Below, piece by piece: positions 1 to 12,707 of a stretch of DNA of 12,741 nt. Positions within the stretch are counted from its first letter, which is position 1, and every line of letters starts with the position of its first letter. The notes below the pieces were generated by a model. That model did not search any database. It saw nothing but the letters and a program-made list of their open reading frames with translations, and was not told where the DNA came from. The stretch is from the IMG/VR virus record IMGVR_UViG_2619619129_000002. One strand, 5' to 3'. The translations under genes were made by a program, and so were the position numbers. This DNA comes from a virus. Its lineage: Duplodnaviria > Heunggongvirae > Uroviricota > Caudoviricetes.

Positions 1-15
1 TAAAGAGAGGTGCCC

Positions 16-231
16 ATGAGCGGTAAGCGTTATCCCGAAGAGTTTAAAACTGAAGCAGTCAAACAGGTTATTGATCGCGGTTATTCTGTTGCCAGCGTTG
101 CAACACGTCTCGATATCACCACCCACAGCCTTTATGCCTGGATAAAGAAGTACGGTCCGGATTACTCCACTTTTTCATCAAGCCAATCCGCCCACCACTG
201 CATCATTTCTCTGCGCTTATCGAGATACTGA
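16..231 (+). pseudogene. IS3-family transposase OrfA remnant: about 50 aa of HTH-domain homology from the ATG at 16, then a divergent tail
   Basis: Translation MSGKRYPEEFKTEAVKQVIDRGYSVASVATRLDITTHSLYAWIKKYGPD matches the N-terminal HTH pattern of IS3-family OrfA proteins as I recall them. Similarity ends near nt 165 and no OrfB or inverted repeats follow. The track ORF starts at a GTG at 10; the ATG at 16 is the likelier start. Confidence 0.5.
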
Positions 232-3927: not shown

Positions 3928-4082
3928 ACAGCTCCCCGTTTATTATTTATCTCCTCAGCCAGCCGCTGTGCTTTCAGTGGATTTCGGGTAACAGAAAGGC
4001 CGGGAAATACCCAGCCTCGCTTTGTAACGGAGTAGACGAAAGTGATCGCACCTACCCGGATATTATCGTGAGGATGCTTCAT
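3900..4082 (-). CDS. Lambda Orf60a-like small protein (60 aa from MKHPHDN; the track ORF extends 2 codons further to 4088)
   Basis: The 183-nt ORF immediately downstream of exo in the transcript, overlapping the exo stop; length matches lambda orf60a. Confidence 0.65.
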
Positions 4083-4759
4083 CGCCATTGTTCCCCAAAT
4101 ACAAAACCAATTTCAGCCAGTGCCTCGTCCATTTTTTCGATGAACTCCGGCACCATCTCGTCAAAACTCGCCATGTAATTTTCATCCCGCTCAACCACGA
4201 CATAATGCAGGCCTTCACGCTTCATTCGTGGGTCATAGTTGGCAAAGTACCAGGCATCTTTTCGTGTCACCCACATGCTGTACTGCACCTGGGCCATGTA
4301 AGCCGACTTTATGGCCTCGAAACCACCGAGCCGGAACTTCATGAAATCCCGGGAGGTAAACGGGCATTTCAGCTCAAGGCCGTTGCCGTCACTGCATAAA
4401 CCATCGGGAGAGCAGGCGGTGCGCATACTTTCGTCGCGATAGATGATCGGGGATTCAGTAACATTCACGCCGGAAGTAAACTCAAACAGGGCTCTGGCGT
4501 CGTTCTCGTACTGTTTTCCCCAGGCCAGTGCTTTAGCGTTAACTTCCGGAGCCACACCGGTGCAAACCTCGGCAAGCAGGGTGTGGAAGTAGGACATTTT
4601 CATGTCAGGCCACTTCTTTCCTGAGCGGGGCTTTGCTATCACGTTGTGAACTTCTGAAGCGGTGATGACGCCGAGCCGTAATTTGTGCCATGCATCATCC
4701 CCCTGTTCGACAGCTCTCACGTCGATCCCGGTACGCTGCAGGATAATGTCCGGTGTCAT
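4079..4759 (-). CDS. exo: Lambda exonuclease (Red-alpha, 226 aa)
   Basis: Translation [65 protein letters not shown]... recognised as lambda Exo. The start overlaps the bet stop. Confidence 0.97.
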
Positions 4760-5546: not shown

Positions 5547-5843
5547 TTATACCTCTGAATCAATATCAACCTGGTGGTGAGCAATGGTTTCAACCATGTA
5601 CCGGATGTGTTCTGCCATGCGCTCCTGAAACTCAACATCGTCATCAAACGCACGGGTAATGGCTTTTTTGCTGGCCCCGTGGCGTTGCAAATGATCGATG
5701 CATAGCGATTCAAACAGGTGCTGGGGCAGGCCTTTTTCCATGTCGTCTGCCAGTTCTGCCTCTTTCTCTTCACGGGCGATCTGCTGGTAGTGACGCGCCC
5801 AGCTCTGAGCCTCAAGACGATCCTGAATGTAATAAGCGTTCAT
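5547..5843 (-). CDS. gam: Gam RecBCD inhibitor, short form only (98 aa)
   Basis: Translation [21 protein letters not shown]...VDIDSEV matches lambda GamS. An in-frame TAA lies 17 codons upstream with no ATG/GTG/TTG between, so no N-terminally extended form is encoded here. Confidence 0.93.
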
Positions 5844-5918: not shown

Positions 5919-6329
5919 TTAGTGATTGAGGCCGTTACCGCGTCCGTCGAGAAAAACTTCCACGAGCAAATCACGGGTATAAGTGCGCTCGATGCCGCGA
6001 TGCAGATAAAGCCGTCCGCGTAAATTAGCTGATGCAGTCCAGGTACCATCTTTGTGTTTGACCAGCATTCCTGGCATGACCGCACCGCGATTAACGGTCT
6101 GCGTTCCGTAATGTTGATGAACCATAAAAACTCCTGCCCGTAAGCTGGGCTGCTGAACATTTAGAGACTTCTGCGCGTATTCAGGCGGTGGATGGCCGCC
6201 GGTTGTCATAACTAAGCCGCCTCGTTGAAGCGACTGAGGTATAAAGTGTTGTGTTGATTTCAGCTGGTCACACCGACGTTCACGCGTCCGTTTCACCCCT
6301 CGCACTCCCCGAAGCCTGCTGAAATTCAA
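5919..6329 (-). CDS. Hypothetical early protein at the N position (first ORF on the predicted pL transcript); start ambiguous between TTG 6329 (136 aa), ATG 6209 (96 aa) and ATG 6125 (68 aa, best Shine-Dalgarno)
   Basis: The track ORF begins at a TTG with no Shine-Dalgarno sequence. The long form carries an arginine-rich stretch [15 protein letters not shown]. The ATG at 6125 is preceded by GCAGGAG plus 5 nt. The stop coincides with the point where lambda-like sequence resumes. Confidence 0.35.
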
Positions 6330-6340
6330 ACTGCGGATCT

Positions 6341-6392
6341 AAGCGGTCATCGCAACGGTGAAACAGGTGGTTACCGTATCGTTGTGTCGTTG
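6341..6392 (-). promoter_or_regulatory. 52-nt hairpin in the 5' leader of the predicted pL transcript
   Basis: Perfect 11-bp inverted repeat TCATCGCAACG (6341-6351) / CGTTGCGATGA (6382-6392) around a 30-nt spacer that has a central GGTTACC palindrome. It lies just downstream of the predicted pL start. Confidence 0.4.
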
Positions 6393-6394
6393 CG

Positions 6395-6465
6395 ATGAAT
6401 TTATTTAAAACTATAGTTGTTTTATCGTCAACAACAAAAGTTGTTTTATCGGTTGTTCTAAATAT
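6395..6465 (-). promoter_or_regulatory. Leftward early promoter with operators (pL/OL analogue)
   Basis: Minus strand reads gttgTTGACGataaaacaactatagttTTAAAT, almost a copy of the rightward gttgTTGACTaaaaacaaccatagtttTAATCT at 7940-7975. ACAAC/GTTGT half-sites flank and overlap the -35 (6426-6431). Confidence 0.6.
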
Positions 6466-6605: not shown

Positions 6606-6986
6606 TCAGTCAGCCCAACCTGATTTCGAGTTTATTTGGGTTTCTGACATTATGTATTTCTTAATCGTGTCATCGTTAAAAAGAATAGTAAGTTCTTTTT
6701 TCGTACCGTTCGTTCCATTATGGAATAATCCATAGAATGGAATAAAAGTGGTGCCATTAACTTTTACTTTTGCAAAGGCGTACTTCCAGATCTCGTTTCC
6801 ACTGTCAGTATATGAAACAGCATCAGGAGAACCAAAGTAAGATTTAACCTCATTCTTGGTTGTTTTACCTTCCTGAAGTTTAGACTGGACACTAATTTCA
6901 GTTTCATTTTTGAGTTGCTGGTTGCCTGAAGAAGCACACCCAGCCAATACAGATGCCATCATGGCAGCGATTAGGATTTTTCTCAT
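6606..6986 (-). CDS. Lipoprotein (126 aa), BamE/OsmE (SmpA/OmlA)-like fold suspected
   Basis: N-terminal signal peptide with lipobox LAGC (Cys17); residue +2 is Ala. Motif GKTTKNEVKSYFGSPDAVSYTDSGNEIWKYAF resembles the BamE/OsmE pattern G-x-T-x-x-[QE]-V-x(3)-[LF]-G-x-P ... W-x-Y-x-F. It sits between the repressor gene and pL, the slot rexAB occupies in lambda. Confidence 0.75.
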   Translation of the reverse strand: MRKILIAAMMASVLAGCASSGNQQLKNETEISVQSKLQEGKTTKNEVKSYFGSPDAVSYTDSGNEIWKYAFAKVKVNGTTFIPFYGLFHNGTNGTKKELTILFNDDTIKKYIMSETQINSKSGWAD

Positions 6987-7215: not shown

Positions 7216-7905
7216 TTAACCATGCTTCCTGTACGTCTGCGGCATGCTTCCAATGACCTTACCGAATATGAACACCCGGTTCATCTCGTCTTTCTCGATC
7301 GGGTCCCACGGCGAGTAGCTCTTGTTATCAGAGATAACCAGCAGCTTATCCTTCATCATTTGAAGACGTTTTACATGGGCAGTGTCGTCGTACAGAAACG
7401 CATAGATGCCATCACCGTCGAAAGATTTAACAGTGATATCAACGAACAGCAGGTCACCTGGTTCGATCGTCCCTGACATGCTGTCACCTCGCACGTTAAT
7501 GATGCGGATATTTTCCGCCTTCCTGCCATCGAACATGTGACGAGCATCGTCAAACGAGTACTCAACCGAGCGTAGAACTTCTACAAACTCACGGTTGATT
7601 ACACCTGGCCCGGCACTGACTTCTATATCAAGAACGTCAATTTTGAAGTATTTGGAATGGCTGACAGTTGATTGTATTGGTTGCACTGTACTGTCTGACA
7701 TATTTCCAACGCCAGAAGATAACCATTCTGCGCGCACACCCAAAGCGTTCGCGATCTCCACGATTTTAGTTGTTTGGTTAGCTTTCCCTGTTTCGATTTT
7801 CTGAATAGCAGCCTGGCTAACCCCGACCAAATCCCCAAGCGCCTTTTGTGTAAGGCCTCGCGCTAATCTGGCTTCTTTAAGTCTTTCTGAGAGTGTTGTT
7901 TTCAT
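7216..7905 (-). CDS. CI-like phage repressor (229 aa): N-terminal XRE-type HTH, C-terminal S24 LexA-like autopeptidase
   Basis: HTH segment LTQKALGDLVGVSQAAIQKIETGK; candidate Ala-Gly cleavage site in VSAGPG; S24 catalytic motifs GDSM (Ser) and HVKRL (Lys). Divergently transcribed from the cro-like gene. Not lambda cI by sequence. Confidence 0.9.
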   Translation of the reverse strand: MKTTLSERLKEARLARGLTQKALGDLVGVSQAAIQKIETGKANQTTKIVEIANALGVRAEWLSSGVGNMSDSTVQPIQSTVSHSKYFKIDVLDIEVSAGPGVINREFVEVLRSVEYSFDDARHMFDGRKAENIRIINVRGDSMSGTIEPGDLLFVDITVKSFDGDGIYAFLYDDTAHVKRLQMMKDKLLVISDNKSYSPWDPIEKDEMNRVFIFGKVIGSMPQTYRKHG

Positions 7906-8009
7906 AGATCAAATGTACAACCAAGGTTTTATTTCATCAAACGAAAATGGTTGTTGACTAAAAACAACCATAGTTTTAATCTTGATTCGGATTAACCACG
8001 GAGGTTGTT
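7906..8009. promoter_or_regulatory. Divergent promoter/operator region (OR, pR, and presumably pRM) between the repressor and cro-like genes
   Basis: pR: -35 TTGACT (7946-7951), 17-bp spacer, -10 TAATCT. Operator inverted repeat ATGGTTGT-N9-ACAACCAT overlaps the -35; a further ACAACC-aa-GGTT element lies at about 7918-7931. The repressor ATG follows with no Shine-Dalgarno sequence, which suggests a leaderless mRNA as for lambda cI from pRM. Confidence 0.7.
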
Positions 8010-8240
8010 ATGAACCCAGCAATCAAAACAGCGATCAATATCGTTGGTTCACAAAAGAAACTAGGCGATGCCTGCGAAGTTTCACAGCAGGCCGTCTATA
8101 AGTGGCTTCACAACAAAGCAAAGGTATCCCCTGAACATGTCGGCAGCATTGTTACGGCTACTGGTGGAGTTGTGAAGGCATACCAGATTCGCCCGGATCT
8201 TCCGAAGTTGTTTCCACACACCGAAAAGAACGCAGCTTAA
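8010..8240 (+). CDS. Cro-like small HTH regulator (76 aa), YdaS-type
   Basis: GGAGG Shine-Dalgarno 6 nt upstream of the ATG. First gene rightward from pR. Small protein with an HTH-like segment QKKLGDACEVSQQAVYKWL. Confidence 0.85.
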   Translation: MNPAIKTAINIVGSQKKLGDACEVSQQAVYKWLHNKAKVSPEHVGSIVTATGGVVKAYQIRPDLPKLFPHTEKNAA

Positions 8241-8252
8241 ATTTCCATTTCA

Positions 8253-8265
8253 CGCTCTTTAACAA
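8253..8265 (+). promoter_or_regulatory. boxA-like element (CGCTCTTTAACAA), candidate nutR component
   Basis: Exact match to the GCTCTTTAACAA boxA type (rrn / phage 21 / P22) as I recall it. It lies in the cro-to-next-gene spacer where lambdoid nutR sites sit. No convincing boxB hairpin found next to it. Confidence 0.5.
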
Positions 8266-8309
8266 TAAGCAATCAACTTAACAGTCAATTCAAACTAAAG
8301 GAGTCAATT

Positions 8310-8849
8310 ATGCAACCACTTACATACCAACAGACTAGCGGATTTATTCCGACTGCGGTGATAAATCGTTCTCAAACAAAACAAGCTCCAGGCCACGAAA
8401 AAATCCGTGATGCCGTCCGCGCCTGGTCGGCTGTAGATAATCAGGATGTCGTTGCCGCACTCATTGTGAATGAGTATCGGGAGCAGGGCGACGGCACCAT
8501 CGATTTCCCTGATGATGTCAGCCGTGCACGCCAGAAGCTGTTCCGCTTCCTCGATAACAAATTCGATTCTGAAAAATACCGAAATAACGTGCGTGAACTG
8601 ACCCCGGCAATTCTGGCGGTACTACCGCTGGAATATCGCGGTTACCTGGTTGAGCAGGATAGCTTCATGACTCGGTTGGCTGAAATGGAAAAGGAACTCA
8701 GTGAGGCAAAACAGGCTGTCATTCTCAACGCACCACGCCACCAGAAACTGAAGGAAATGAGTGAAGGTATTGTGTCGATGTTTCGTGTGGACCCGGATCT
8801 GGCTGGTCCATTAATGGCGATGGTGACCACCATGCTGGGGGCAATATGA
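8310..8849 (+). CDS. YdaT-like protein (179 aa) in the cII position
   Basis: AAGGAG Shine-Dalgarno upstream. Occupies the slot between cro and O. Resemblance to the Rac YdaT family is from recall of domain character, not verified. Confidence 0.7.
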   Translation: MQPLTYQQTSGFIPTAVINRSQTKQAPGHEKIRDAVRAWSAVDNQDVVAALIVNEYREQGDGTIDFPDDVSRARQKLFRFLDNKFDSEKYRNNVRELTPAILAVLPLEYRGYLVEQDSFMTRLAEMEKELSEAKQAVILNAPRHQKLKEMSEGIVSMFRVDPDLAGPLMAMVTTMLGAI

Positions 8850-8935
8850 CAGGTTCAGAAATGGCGAAAGTCGGTCTGCGGGAACAGAACCGACTTTCAG
8901 GTGCAAATCGTAACACACTCATTGCGGGAGGAATT

Positions 8936-9865
8936 ATGGCAAACACTGCTGAGATATTCAATTTTCCAGTGCCGGATGCGGCACAAAAGGAGCCGCGCGT
9001 GGCAGATCTCGATGATGGTTATACGCGCATTGCAAATGAGTTGCTGGAAGCTGTGATGCTGGCCGGATTAACACAGCACCAGCTTCTGGTCTTCCTGGCT
9101 GTCATGCGCAAAACATATGGCTTTAATAAAAAACTGGATTGGGTGAGCAACGAGCAACTTTCCGAGTTGACCGGGATATTGCCGCACAAGTGTTCTGCTG
9201 CAAAAAGTGTTCTGGTAAAGCGTGGGATTTTTATTCAGAGCGGGCGGAATATCGGCATTAATAATGTGGTCAGTGAATGGTCAACATTACCCGAATCAGG
9301 TAAGAAAAATAAAGTTTACCTGAAAGAGGTAAATTTACCTGAATCAGGTAAGAAAAGTTTACCCAAATCAGGTAAAGGCACTTACCCGAATCAGGTAAAC
9401 ACAAAAGACAAACTAACAAAAGACAATATAAAACCTTATTCGTCCGAGAATTCTGGCGAATACTCTGACCAGCCAGAAAACGACCTTCCTGTGGTGAAAC
9501 CGGATGCTGCGATTCAGAGCGGCAGCAAGTGGGGGACAGCAGAAGACCTGACCGCCGCAGAGTGGATGTTTGACATGGTGAAGACCATCGCGCCATCAGC
9601 CAGAAAACCGAATTTTGCAGGGTGGGCCAACGACATCCGCCTGATGCGTGAGCGTGACGGGCGTAACCATCGCGACATGTGCGTTCTGTTCCGCTGGGCC
9701 TGCCAGGACAACTTTTGGTCTGGTAACGTGCTGAGCCCGGCCAAACTTCGCGACAAATGGACCCAACTCGAAATCAACCGTAACAAACAACAGGCTGGCG
9801 TGACAGCCGGAAAACCAAAACTCGACCTGACAAACACAGACTGGATTTACGGGGTGGATCTATGA
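8936..9865 (+). CDS. O: Replication initiator O (309 aa), chimeric: non-lambda N-terminal domain, lambda-identical C-terminal domain
   Basis: Start placed at ATG 8936 (GGGAGG Shine-Dalgarno 6 nt upstream; MANTAEIFNF aligns with lambda O MTNTAKILNF). The C-terminal roughly 120 aa (ENDLPVVKPDAAIQSGSKWGTAEDLTAAEWMFDMVKTIAPSARKPNFAGWANDIR...) match lambda O from memory. The track ORF extends upstream to 8846. Confidence 0.9.
   Translation: MANTAEIFNFPVPDAAQKEPRVADLDDGYTRIANELLEAVMLAGLTQHQLLVFLAVMRKTYGFNKKLDWVSNEQLSELTGILPHKCSAAKSVLVKRGIFIQSGRNIGINNVVSEWSTLPESGKKNKVYLKEVNLPESGKKSLPKSGKGTYPNQVNTKDKLTKDNIKPYSSENSGEYSDQPENDLPVVKPDAAIQSGSKWGTAEDLTAAEWMFDMVKTIAPSARKPNFAGWANDIRLMRERDGRNHRDMCVLFRWACQDNFWSGNVLSPAKLRDKWTQLEINRNKQQAGVTAGKPKLDLTNTDWIYGVDL
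9287..9435. repeat. ori: Replication origin inside O: five 18-bp iterons (starts 9287, 9316, 9335, 9359, 9382) plus an AT-rich tract (9400-9435)
   Basis: Iteron consensus TTACC(C/T)GAA(T/A)(C/G)AGGTAA(G/A), each an inverted repeat (for example TACCTGA-A-TCAGGTA), followed by cacaaaagacaaactaacaaaagacaatataaaacc. Same architecture as lambda ori but a different iteron sequence. Confidence 0.8.
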
Positions 9866-10563
9866 AAAACATCGCCGCACAGATGATTAACTTTGACCGT
9901 GAGCAGATGCGTCGGATCGCCAACAATATGCCGGAACAGTACGACGAAAAGCCGCAGGTACAGCAGGTAGCGCAGATCATCAACGGTGTGTTCAGCCAGT
10001 TACTGGCAACTTTCCCGGCGAGCCTGGCTAACCGTGACCAGAACGAACTGAACGAAATCCGCCGCCAGTGGGTTCTGGCTTTCCGGGAAAACGGGATCAC
10101 CACAATGGAACAGGTTAACGCAGGAATGCGCGTAGCCCGTCGGCAGAATCGACCATTTCTGCCATCACCCGGGCAGTTTGTTGCATGGTGCCGGGAAGAA
10201 GCATCCGTTATCGCCGGACTGCCAAACGTCAGCGAGCTGGTTGATATGGTTTACGAGTATTGCCGGAAGCGAGGCCTGTATCCGGATGCGGAGTCTTATC
10301 CGTGGAAATCAAACGCGCACTACTGGCTGGTTACCAACCTGTATCAGAACATGCGGGCCAATGCGCTTACTGATGCGGAATTACGGCGTAAAGCTGCCGA
10401 TGAGCTGACCTGTATGACCGCGCGAATTAACCGTGGTGAGGCGATACCTGAACCAGTAAAACAACTTCCTGTCATGGGCGGTAGGCCTCTAAATCGTGCA
10501 CAGGCTCTGGCGAAGATCGCAGAAATCAAAGCGAAGTTCGGACTGAAAGGAGCAACTATATGA
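9862..10563 (+). CDS. P: Replication protein P (helicase loader, 233 aa), lambda-like
   Basis: Translation MKNIAAQMINFDREQMRRIANNMPEQYDEKPQVQQVAQIINGVFSQLLATFPASLANRDQNELNEIRRQW... recognised as lambda P. ATGA start/stop overlap with O. Confidence 0.95.
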   Translation: MKNIAAQMINFDREQMRRIANNMPEQYDEKPQVQQVAQIINGVFSQLLATFPASLANRDQNELNEIRRQWVLAFRENGITTMEQVNAGMRVARRQNRPFLPSPGQFVAWCREEASVIAGLPNVSELVDMVYEYCRKRGLYPDAESYPWKSNAHYWLVTNLYQNMRANALTDAELRRKAADELTCMTARINRGEAIPEPVKQLPVMGGRPLNRAQALAKIAEIKAKFGLKGATI

Positions 10564-10879: not shown

Positions 10880-11374
10880 ATGAGAAAATTTATTTTAGCC
10901 TTTGTCATAAGTGCCTCGTTTACAGCAAATGCTGGTGTAGAGAAGTTAGGGCCGTGGATAACAAAGTCTGAGATAAATAAAATGACTGACCAGACTGACT
11001 TTGTGGCTCTTAATTTATCACCAGATTCATATAACAAAGCAGGTACTGATCGTGCAACTTCACTGGTGTTGCGTTGTAGTGATAACAAAACAGATGCCTA
11101 TTTATCATTCAATGATTATATGGGTTCGGACAACCCAAGAATTACAGTGCGGTTAGATGGCGGAAAGCCGGTCAAGAGTGTTTGGGGAGGTGGGGAAGGC
11201 GGTGATTCTGCATTTGCTCCACAACCAATACAATTTATAAAGACCTTGGCTAAGCATAAAAAAGCTATTTTTGGGTTTGAACCTTATGGATCAACTATGC
11301 AAGTAGTTGAGTTTGACTTGTCTGAGATTGATAAGGTTGTGGAAAAAATTTCACAGTCTTGCAATTGGAAATGA
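10880..11374 (+). CDS. Secreted or periplasmic protein of unknown function (164 aa) with a cleavable signal peptide
   Basis: AAGGAG Shine-Dalgarno 8 nt upstream. N-terminus MRKFILAFVISASFTANA with an A-x-A signal peptidase I site before Gly19. Two Cys residues (C66, C161). AT-rich codon usage by eye. Candidate promoter upstream (GATAAT -10-like at about 10842) and terminator downstream. Confidence 0.75.
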   Translation: MRKFILAFVISASFTANAGVEKLGPWITKSEINKMTDQTDFVALNLSPDSYNKAGTDRATSLVLRCSDNKTDAYLSFNDYMGSDNPRITVRLDGGKPVKSVWGGGEGGDSAFAPQPIQFIKTLAKHKKAIFGFEPYGSTMQVVEFDLSEIDKVVEKISQSCNWK

Positions 11375-11391
11375 CAAAAAAATTTCATATG

Positions 11392-11418
11392 AACCCAGTT
11401 GGCGCTGGGTTTTTTATT
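11392..11418 (+). terminator. Rho-independent terminator after the secreted-protein gene
   Basis: Hairpin AACCCAG-ttggcg-CTGGGTT followed by TTTTTATTT, 18 nt past the stop codon. Confidence 0.7.
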
Positions 11419-12009: not shown

Positions 12010-12513
12010 TTATTGATAGTGTTTTATGTTCAGATAATGCCCGATGATTTTGTCATGCAGCTCCACCGATTTTGAGAACGACAGCGACTTCCGTCCCAGC
12101 CGTGCCAGGTGCTGCCTCAGATTCAGGTTATGCCGCTCAATTCGCTGCGTATATCGCTTGCTGATTACGTGCAGCTTTCCCTTCAGGCGGGATTCATACA
12201 GTGGCCAGCCATCCGTCATCCATATCACCACGTCAAAGGGTGACAGCAGGCTCATAAGACGCCCCAGCGTCGCCATAGTGCGTTCACCGAATACGTGCGC
12301 AACAACCGTCTTCCGGAGCCTGTCATACGCGTAAAACAGCCAGCGCTGGCGCGATTTAGCCCCGACATAGCCCCACTGTTCGTCCATTTCCGCGCAGACG
12401 ATGACGTCACTGCCCGGCTGTATGCGCGAGGTTACCGACTGCGGCCTGAGTTTTTTAAGTGACGTAAAATCGTGTTGAGGCCAACGCCCATAATGCGGGC
12501 AGTTGCCCGGCAT
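12010..12513 (-). CDS. insB: IS1 InsB (transposase C-terminal frame, 167 aa)
   Basis: Translation [64 protein letters not shown]... matches IS1 InsB. Confidence 0.9.
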
Positions 12514-12707
12514 CCAACGCCATTCATGGCCATATCAATGATTTTCTGGTGCGTACCGGGTTGAGAAGCGGTGTAAGTGAACTGCAGTTGCCATGTTTTA
12601 CGGCAGTGAGAGCAGAGATAGCGCTGATGTCCGGCAGTGCTTTTGCCGTTACGCACCACCCCGTCAGTAGCTGAACAGGAGGGACAGCTGATAGAAACAG
12701 AAGCCAC
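12432..12707 (-). CDS. insA: IS1 InsA (91 aa, zinc-finger/HTH regulator and N-terminal part of the InsAB' transposase)
   Basis: Translation [91 protein letters not shown] matches IS1 InsA. Confidence 0.9.

Follow-up and report, generated by a model that had tools for sequence, protein, structure and literature searches.

A consensus boxA without boxB or N between YdaS- and YdaT-type regulator genes in the early region of a lambda-like Escherichia coli phage

What can a boxA do in a lambdoid phage in which the partners of a nut site are missing? The question is raised by a viral DNA of 12,741 nt (Caudoviricetes; IMG/VR record IMGVR_UViG_2619619129_000002), referred to below as the window, in which a boxA lies between the genes of two small regulators, a YdaS-type protein in the position of Cro and a YdaT-type protein in the position of CII. 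The window is the early region of a lambda-like prophage, and the locus is the ordinary immunity (lysis–lysogeny) region of a very common E. coli phage of this kind. The original prediction, made from the sequence alone, had read the order pR, small helix-turn-helix (HTH) protein, boxA, 179-aa protein and O at this locus, and this order was confirmed by the open reading frame (ORF) coordinates and the sequence. The only unusual feature of the region is the perfect boxA with neither a partner hairpin nor a phage N; this boxA is real, its position is non-random, and it is orphaned.

The stretch from 7900 to 8900 was identical (100%) to the plaque-forming phage PhiR26_1 (48,207 bp, recorded host K-12 MG1655) and ~97% identical to the isolated phages PhiR34_1, PhiR5_1, PhiR47_2 and IdasGreatGrand. 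The segment made up of cro and the gap behind it, which marks the immunity type, was found in 1524 of 5426 complete E. coli genomes (28%). Because of the identity to isolated phages and the count among E. coli genomes, the phage type is regarded as very common and viable, and as no decayed curiosity.

The boxA, its gap and the search for an N system

The boxA (CGCTCTTTAACAA) originally placed at 8253-8265 (+) was confirmed, and no other site in the window matched YGCTCTTTAACAA with up to two mismatches permitted; by chance, ~8e-4 exact matches would be expected over this length. Its core, GCTCTTTAACA (8254-8264, +), agrees perfectly with GYTCTTTAANA, the consensus used for functional BoxA elements by Baniulyte et al. 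(PMC5725501). This consensus occurs a single time, both strands counted, in the complete 48,207-bp genome of PhiR26_1, at the boxA site, and ~1e-4 matches would be expected by chance on the sense strand of the 69-nt gap between cro and ydaT. A boxA also stands at the homologous position in four relatives of the YdaS-type Cro (described below).

The boxA lies 270 nt downstream of pR, with no plus-strand terminator-like site predicted between them, and ends 45 nt before the ATG of ydaT. When C/G ratios were calculated for 70-nt segments of the pR transcript, the highest values fell at the gap, reaching 3.4 where the median was 0.9 and ranking within about the top 1.4% of the window. RNA of this composition would be of the kind on which Rho loads and would resemble the Rho entry region of the lambda tR1 type. 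No boxB stands beside the boxA, as had been noticed at the outset: folding of 8236-8325 gave −4.1 kcal/mol (z = 0.07 against shuffled sequences) and no boxB hairpin, and folding of 8250-8309 gave −3.6 kcal/mol (z = −0.95), with only weak pairing between the boxA and the Shine–Dalgarno sequence of ydaT.

Conservation in related phages had been proposed as a check on the boxA. Within the lineage the element was intact in 80 of 81 copies (78 IMG/VR loci, PhiR26_1 and IdasGreatGrand), one copy carrying a G to T change, which is uninformative at an overall identity of 97–100%, too little divergence to tell selection from drift. In sibling phages with the same ydaT-O-P backbone the boxA was missing.

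A scan of the whole window against Rfam (E ≤ 1) returned one spurious microRNA match only. IMG/VR was surveyed for CGCTCTTTAACAA followed by A, C or G, which gave at least 120 loci per pattern, mostly chance 14-mers in unrelated contigs; the hairpin detector applied to them missed imperfect stems, and the survey was not used as evidence. In Supplementary Data 1 of PMC5725501, GCTCTTTAACA is listed 3 nt upstream of prophage genes named 'cII' and 'C1' in E. coli S88 and 55989, which could belong to this lineage or be ordinary nutR sites. The main text of that paper contains the word 'phage' once and 'prophage' never.

The boxA most probably does not belong to an N system, and N-type antitermination, which had been suggested as one meaning of the element, is not supported: no boxB, no N homologue and no leftward boxA or nutL was found, so that boxA alone was present among the four parts of a nut system sought at the locus (boxA, boxB, N gene and nutL; 1 of 4). 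Pfam and PHROG profiles run on the pL-proximal ORFs returned only Kil, at residues 61-136 of a long ORF, with no match to PF25694 or phrog_271. Neither lambda N nor Rouxiella N, used as tblastn queries, gave a match in the window or across the whole PhiR26_1 genome, and the annotation of PhiR26_1 includes no N. On the minus strand of the leftward (pL) operon no boxA was found at up to one mismatch, and boxA matches with two mismatches occurred at the chance rate (23 observed, 23.3 expected).

All ORFs of PhiR26_1 were also scanned for arginine-rich N-termini, which gave one candidate in an early operon, a 5' extension of the kil ORF with the stretch KRTRERR (6296-6329, minus strand, in frame upstream of kil). 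It was rejected as an N-like motif on its substitution pattern and frame-breaking indels: among 52 distinct relatives, the variable sites at codon positions 1/2/3 numbered 12/10/11 upstream of the kil ATG, compared with 4/6/17 within kil itself, and indels of 1 or 2 nt occur in the KRTRERR region of some relatives. This non-coding pattern, together with the indels, indicates that the stretch is probably untranslated leader RNA and no protein. The pL leader starts with a hairpin of a 10-bp stem (6392-6341) and is ~96% identical, from just downstream of pL, in the phages Perceval, 4A7 and Lambda_4C10, which are of other immunity.

A covariance model for put RNA was built from HK022 putL, HK022 putR and, as annotated in GenBank, HK639 putL, and scored 66–104 bits on these training sequences. 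It detected no put RNA: no score exceeded 8.4 bits, either in the window and the first 16.5 kb of PhiR26_1 (E > 2) or in the early regions of IdasGreatGrand and Perceval that were scanned.

Relatives, origin and possible role of the boxA

The comparison covered 25 species-level relatives of the YdaS-type Cro from other Enterobacterales, together with several phages. A boxA was found 6–23 nt past the cro stop codon in 4 of the 25, in Rouxiella, Serratia, Symbiopectobacterium and Siccibacter (L089, L091, L094 and L095). The folding test used for the window gave a clear GC-rich stem-loop ~8–12 nt beyond the boxA in L089, L091 and L094, and only a weak fold in Siccibacter L095 (−7.3 kcal/mol, z = −0.44). 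The gene after the boxA was a lambda-CII homologue in Serratia and Siccibacter and of a non-YdaT type in L089 and L094; an N gene (PF25694, 1.4e-8) was present in the Rouxiella locus, the sole boxA locus whose flank reaches far enough. Where a YdaS-type cro was followed by a YdaT-type gene, the gap was short and without boxA in all 12 relatives sampled (19–31 nt in 10 species-level loci, 24 nt in Perceval and 29 nt in HK639). Among the loci compared, a boxA followed by YdaT is confined to this E. coli lineage.

In the Salmonella phage UPF_BP1 (NC_047875, P22-like; L114 2806-2876) a putR identical to that of HK022 follows a YdaS-type cro, the stretch having been compared by eye. This suggests that put elements can be inserted as cassettes at the nutR position of phages that are not related. 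The slot after cro is a mosaic joint which, depending on the phage, holds a boxA with a stem-loop, a putR, nothing, or a boxA alone. The comparison illustrates phage mosaicism at the slot that follows a YdaS-type cro. Phages of other immunity share ydaT-O (~96–97%) from 8309/8310 of the window onward, where the gap gives way to ydaT, and a search of the phage collection for a donor of the 69-nt gap returned matches from the same lineage only. Most probably, and as the simplest history, the boxA was inherited from the cro-nutR module of an N-type phage that was joined to a ydaT-O-P module, with loss of boxB.

It is moderately probable that the orphan boxA continues to recruit Nus factors and gives pR transcription a modest protection against Rho. 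RNA made from pR would carry the boxA in the sense orientation in the middle of an unstructured, untranslated gap. NusB and S10 would bind the nascent boxA and, with NusA, NusG and SuhB, would form a host-only complex as on rRNA and CRISPR leaders; this complex would weaken Rho-dependent polarity both at the gap and in the long untranslated parts of the pR operon that follow, an effect that would probably be modulatory and not essential. Binding of NusB/NusE is plausible because the boxA fits the consensus for functional stand-alone BoxA sites. Antitermination on CRISPR arrays is reportedly driven by BoxA. Termination and antitermination in CRISPR array transcription are treated in PMC7665894. 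In E. coli, BoxA elements that stand alone need neither boxB nor N, and they block Rho termination at rrn (PMC5725501). In PhiR26_1 the pR transcript includes, before Q, ~2.5 kb without an annotated plus-strand gene, the antisense strand of a 1.5-kb defence gene included, and in addition a terminator-like site; by analogy, this stretch may resemble an untranslated CRISPR array.

Several findings weigh against such protection. The siblings Perceval, 4A7 and Lambda_4C10, whose ydaT-O-P and pL-leader-kil backbones are nearly the same, and HK639 do without a boxA, which is therefore inessential. Outside E. coli, the nearest relative of the immunity region is a Klebsiella phage whose Cro is 80% identical and whose operator words are the same, and it too lacks a boxA; about six mutational events were counted in the gap across the 81 copies, one of them in the boxA, which equals the neutral expectation; and the leftward operon has clear intrinsic terminators (e.g. 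3421-3407) yet no boxA, so that passage of pL transcription through terminators relies on something other than a boxA. Much of this would also fit an inert relic, that is, the left half of an N-type nutR cut from its boxB and N gene by module exchange and intact only through the youth of a near-clonal lineage, on which NusB/NusE could bind without consequence. The confinement of boxA with YdaT to this lineage (12 of 12 other YdaS and YdaT loci have none), the downstream gene of a non-YdaT type, twice a lambda-CII homologue, at each of the 4 loci where cro is followed by a boxA, the siblings that share the backbone but have no boxA, and the lack of conservation beyond the rest of the gap all speak for such a relic. 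It is nevertheless judged unlikely, if of real weight, since the boxA matches the consensus at 13 of 13 positions, better than lambda's own, and stands in the most Rho-prone stretch of the transcript; a consensus BoxA on nascent RNA is expected to recruit Nus factors whatever its history (PMC5725501), and the occurrence in 1524 of 5426 genomes gave ample chance for decay, yet 80 of the 81 copies sampled are intact.

Two further explanations carry less weight. At suhB, BoxA represses translation at a distance of up to 100 nt and so promotes Rho termination (PMC5725501), and a Nus complex tethered to the boxA could in the same manner repress translation of ydaT and, by uncoupling, let Rho terminate, which would make the supply of the CII analogue, and with it the choice of lysogeny, depend on free Nus factors and on the growth state of the host. 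The 45 nt between boxA and ydaT fall within the 50-nt criterion of Baniulyte et al. (PMC5725501), the gap is rut-like, weak pairing of the boxA with the ydaT Shine–Dalgarno sequence is possible, and the same 11-mer stands upstream of the prophage cII/C1 genes of E. coli S88 and 55989 in the supplementary table of that paper. This remains improbable: termination at ydaT would at the same time shut down O, P and Q, genes required for lytic growth, the pairing is no better than in shuffled sequences by either fold (z = 0.07 for 8236-8325; z = −0.95 for 8250-8309), and the listed matches may simply represent nutR sites of the usual N type. Alternatively, the phage could encode an N-like protein that escaped recognition, or use the N of a co-resident prophage, and the boxA would then belong to a genuine N-utilisation site. 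It does lie in the canonical nutR position; the KRTRERR stretch resembles the arginine-rich motif of N, and mEp021 shows that the gene of an N-like protein need not be in the usual location (PMC11893012). Such a site is very improbable, for there is no hairpin for an arginine-rich motif to bind, the absence of boxB having already contradicted this explanation, no second site was found on the left operon, the KRTRERR stretch is without coding constraint, no match to an N family was obtained, and K-12 MG1655 and E. coli C both support plaques of these phages.

The orphan boxA in the nutR slot offers a testable handle on how early transcription passes Rho-dependent and intrinsic terminators in lambdoid phages with neither N nor put; for one such phage a 2025 survey guesses 'put-like' (PMC12315714). 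It is a rather doubtful proposal that widespread E. coli phages lacking N, nut and put load a host-only Nus complex (NusA/B/E/G and SuhB) on the pR transcript through a stand-alone boxA of the rRNA type, or else adjust the amount of CII analogue to the translational state of the host. Were it true, Nus loading by boxA alone would be a third solution to early antitermination in lambdoid phages, free of both protein and hairpin.

The YdaS- and YdaT-type regulators and the remaining genes

Both small proteins are of the types originally named: the 76-aa protein is of YdaS type by a Pfam match above the curated threshold, and the 179-aa protein is of YdaT type by Pfam and PHROG (Table 1). The YdaS-type protein scored below the cut-offs of the P22_Cro and HTH_3 profiles and matched the solved Cro 3bd1 weakly (E = 0.0055). 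Its gene opens the rightward operon, divergent from cI and with shared operators between them. The −35 hexamer of pR is overlapped by the palindromic operator, and the pR and pL regions share inverted repeats (I1, 6421-6449/7936-7964; I3, 6405-6423/7961-7979, 95% complementary). The YdaT-type gene sits between cro and the replication initiator gene O, and its product is 97% identical to Perceval CII and 52% identical to HK639 cII; the solved CP-933P YdaT 8bt1 (E = 5.5e-4) and 3c4r (E = 1.1e-3) are distant sequence relatives. In PhiR26_1 the counterpart of the 76-aa protein is already annotated Cro, and in this phage and its relatives the two genes carry the names Cro and cII. The 76-aa protein would serve as the Cro analogue made from pR and the 179-aa protein as a CII analogue, whose relatives in Rac and CP-933P activate a leftward repressor promoter.

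The assignment as Cro and CII analogues is right and has already been published. Casjens 2003 identified YdaS and YdaT as homologues of Cro and CII, according to Jobling 2018 (PMC5917428), and Jurenas 2021 found by experiment that YdaS and YdaT of CP-933P act like Cro and CII (PMC8630535), YdaS binding the operators and repressing pRM and pR. The structure of YdaT was solved as that of a tetrameric POU-like HTH protein that binds TTGATT-N6-AATCAA between ydaS and ydaT (Prolic-Kalinsek 2023, PMC9986795), and Rac YdaT switches on a reverse promoter within ydaS for repressor synthesis (Wons 2025, PMC11879457).

The Pfam names 'Bacterial toxin YdaS/YdaT' and the RefSeq product names (for the 179-aa protein, 'toxin YdaT domain-containing protein') point to a toxin–antitoxin module, and Rac YdaS/YdaT are reportedly toxic on overexpression (PMC5700377, PMC5700373). 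Such a module is scarcely credible here. The two genes fill the cro/cII slot of plaque-forming phages; the published experiments show Cro- and CII-like DNA binding and promoter control and speak against a toxin–antitoxin pair (PMC8630535, PMC9986795, PMC11879457, PMC5917428), lambda CII is also toxic when overproduced, and Jobling 2018 argues against the toxin label (PMC5917428), so that the idea has already been refuted for homologues. The slot and the literature together bear out the view, taken in the original prediction, that the pair are lysis–lysogeny regulators and no toxin–antitoxin module. The RefSeq name is a legacy of the Pfam name, and the value of the analysis is mostly corrective, the CII analogue of a viable phage still being named a toxin by RefSeq in thousands of E. 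coli genomes.

The published YdaT-box, (T/A)TGATT-N6-AATCAA, was sought beside ydaT and no convincing site was found, the best match in the gap (8259-8276) having three mismatches. A similar site with two mismatches lies at 7982-7999, between the −10 hexamer of pR and the cro start. Over the window 22 sites with up to three mismatches were counted where 10 would be expected, a number that no shuffle out of 200 attained; the excess may reflect YdaT binding or local AT-rich composition. The YdaT of this phage is divergent, so its own box may differ from the published one. A leftward promoter-like site, TTCACA-17-AACAAT, lies within cro (8176-8148, minus strand), placed like the YdaT-activated reverse promoter of Rac, and the gap between cro and ydaT carries the word TTGAYT three times on its minus strand (8271-8308). 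The site and the words are candidates for an analogue of pRE.

Among the remaining genes (Table 1), the counterpart of the S24 repressor in PhiR26_1 is already annotated cI. The O start overlaps the end of ydaT by ATGA, and O contains iterons at ~9287-9400 (+), with four to five copies of TTACCYGAATCAGGTAA (repeats I5, I6, I15-I18). The lipoprotein moron codes for 126 aa with a weak BamE-like Pfam match (phrog_3135) and has a strong terminator of its own (6598-6579); its position between cI and pL is the lambda rexAB slot, and other cargo occupies it in relatives. After P, a gene at 10880-11412 (+) codes for a secreted VasI-like (type VI secretion) protein and has its own terminator. A fragment of an IS3-family transposase lies at the left end of the window (10-231, +), and two ORFs at the right end (12010-12707, minus strand) resemble IS1 insA/insB, judged from the translations alone. 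Given these IS-like ORFs, the window copy may be interrupted to the right of the replication genes.

Table 1. Positions of genes and sites in the window, with the matches or sequence features on which each was called.
Feature	Position	Strand	Basis or remark
int	544-1614	minus	
xis		minus	
exo	4079-4759	minus	
bet		minus	
gam	5547-5843	minus	
kil		minus	
pL leader into kil	6130-6395	minus	~270 nt; no N gene, boxA or put RNA found
pL and operators	6403-6449	minus	putative promoter; −35 TTGACG 6431-6426; operator words as at pR
Lipoprotein moron	6606-6986	minus	
cI-type repressor, N-terminal HTH and S24 autocleavage domain	7216-7905	minus	Pfam Peptidase_S24 1.2e-18, HTH_3 5.4e-13; phrog_4 8.7e-73
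pR and operator	7947-7982	plus	putative promoter; 25-bp palindrome ATGGTTGTTGACTAAAAACAACCAT 7947-7971; −35 TTGACT 7954-7959, 17-nt spacer, −10 TAATCT 7977-7982
YdaS-family Cro analogue, 76 aa	8010-8240	plus	PF15943 6.6e-17, 61.5 bits (cut-off 30); phrog_35 (transcriptional repressor) 1.3e-27
cro-ydaT gap, 69 nt	8241-8309	plus	unstructured, G-poor, C-rich, rut-like; A27 C15 G6 T21
Stand-alone consensus boxA CGCTCTTTAACAA	8253-8265	plus	predicted NusB/NusE site, without boxB; unique exact match
YdaT-family CII analogue, 179 aa	8310-8849	plus	PF06254 4.3e-30, 104.5 bits (cut-off 21); phrog_163 'CII-like transcriptional activator' 1.4e-66
Replication initiator O with ori iterons	8846-9865	plus	PF04492 8.6e-34; phrog_277 3.8e-163; right edge of the cro/cII slot
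P	9862-10563	plus	

Parallels in known systems

Among lambdoid immunity regions, the locus falls into the YdaS/YdaT class, together with Rac, CP-933P, HK639 and, according to PMC8630535, phi80. RacR-YdaS-YdaT of Rac (K-12) and PaaR2-YdaS-YdaT of CP-933P (O157:H7) share with it the Pfam families, the order of repressor, divergent YdaS, YdaT and replication genes, and the Cro and CII roles. Unlike these, the present locus has a full SOS-cleavable cI-type repressor of the S24 family, belongs to a viable phage, encodes a distant homologue of YdaT and has no clear copy of the published YdaT-box next to ydaT; the gap between ydaS and ydaT is 69 nt with a boxA here and 22 nt without one in Rac. In the YdaS/YdaT literature, antitermination, nut or an N protein does not appear in Jurenas 2021 (PMC8630535), neither boxA nor antitermination is mentioned in Wons 2025 (PMC11879457), and antitermination does not appear in Jobling 2018 (PMC5917428).

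HK022 and HK639 are lambdoid phages that likewise lack N, and HK639 has the same layout of a YdaS-type cro and a YdaT-type cII. Unlike in these two, put RNA was found neither in the window nor in the first 16.5 kb of PhiR26_1. With the stand-alone BoxA elements of rrn leaders, the suhB 5' untranslated region and CRISPR leaders, which need no boxB or N and recruit NusB/E, NusA, NusG and SuhB (PMC5725501), the boxA of the window shares GYTCTTTAANA. It differs from them in standing on a phage early mRNA between two translated genes, and the likeness is by the sequence criterion only.

Another parallel is lambda nutR/tR1, which has the same position after cro, a boxA in the sense orientation and untranslated RNA of the rut-like kind. 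The boxA here has the full consensus (CGCTCTTTA...), unlike that of lambda, CGCTCTTA. In contrast to lambda, boxB, N and nutL are absent and a YdaT-type protein takes the place of the lambda-type CII. By analogy, the locus may be regarded as built, and as working, like the cro-nutR-tR1-cII region of lambda without its N-specific parts.

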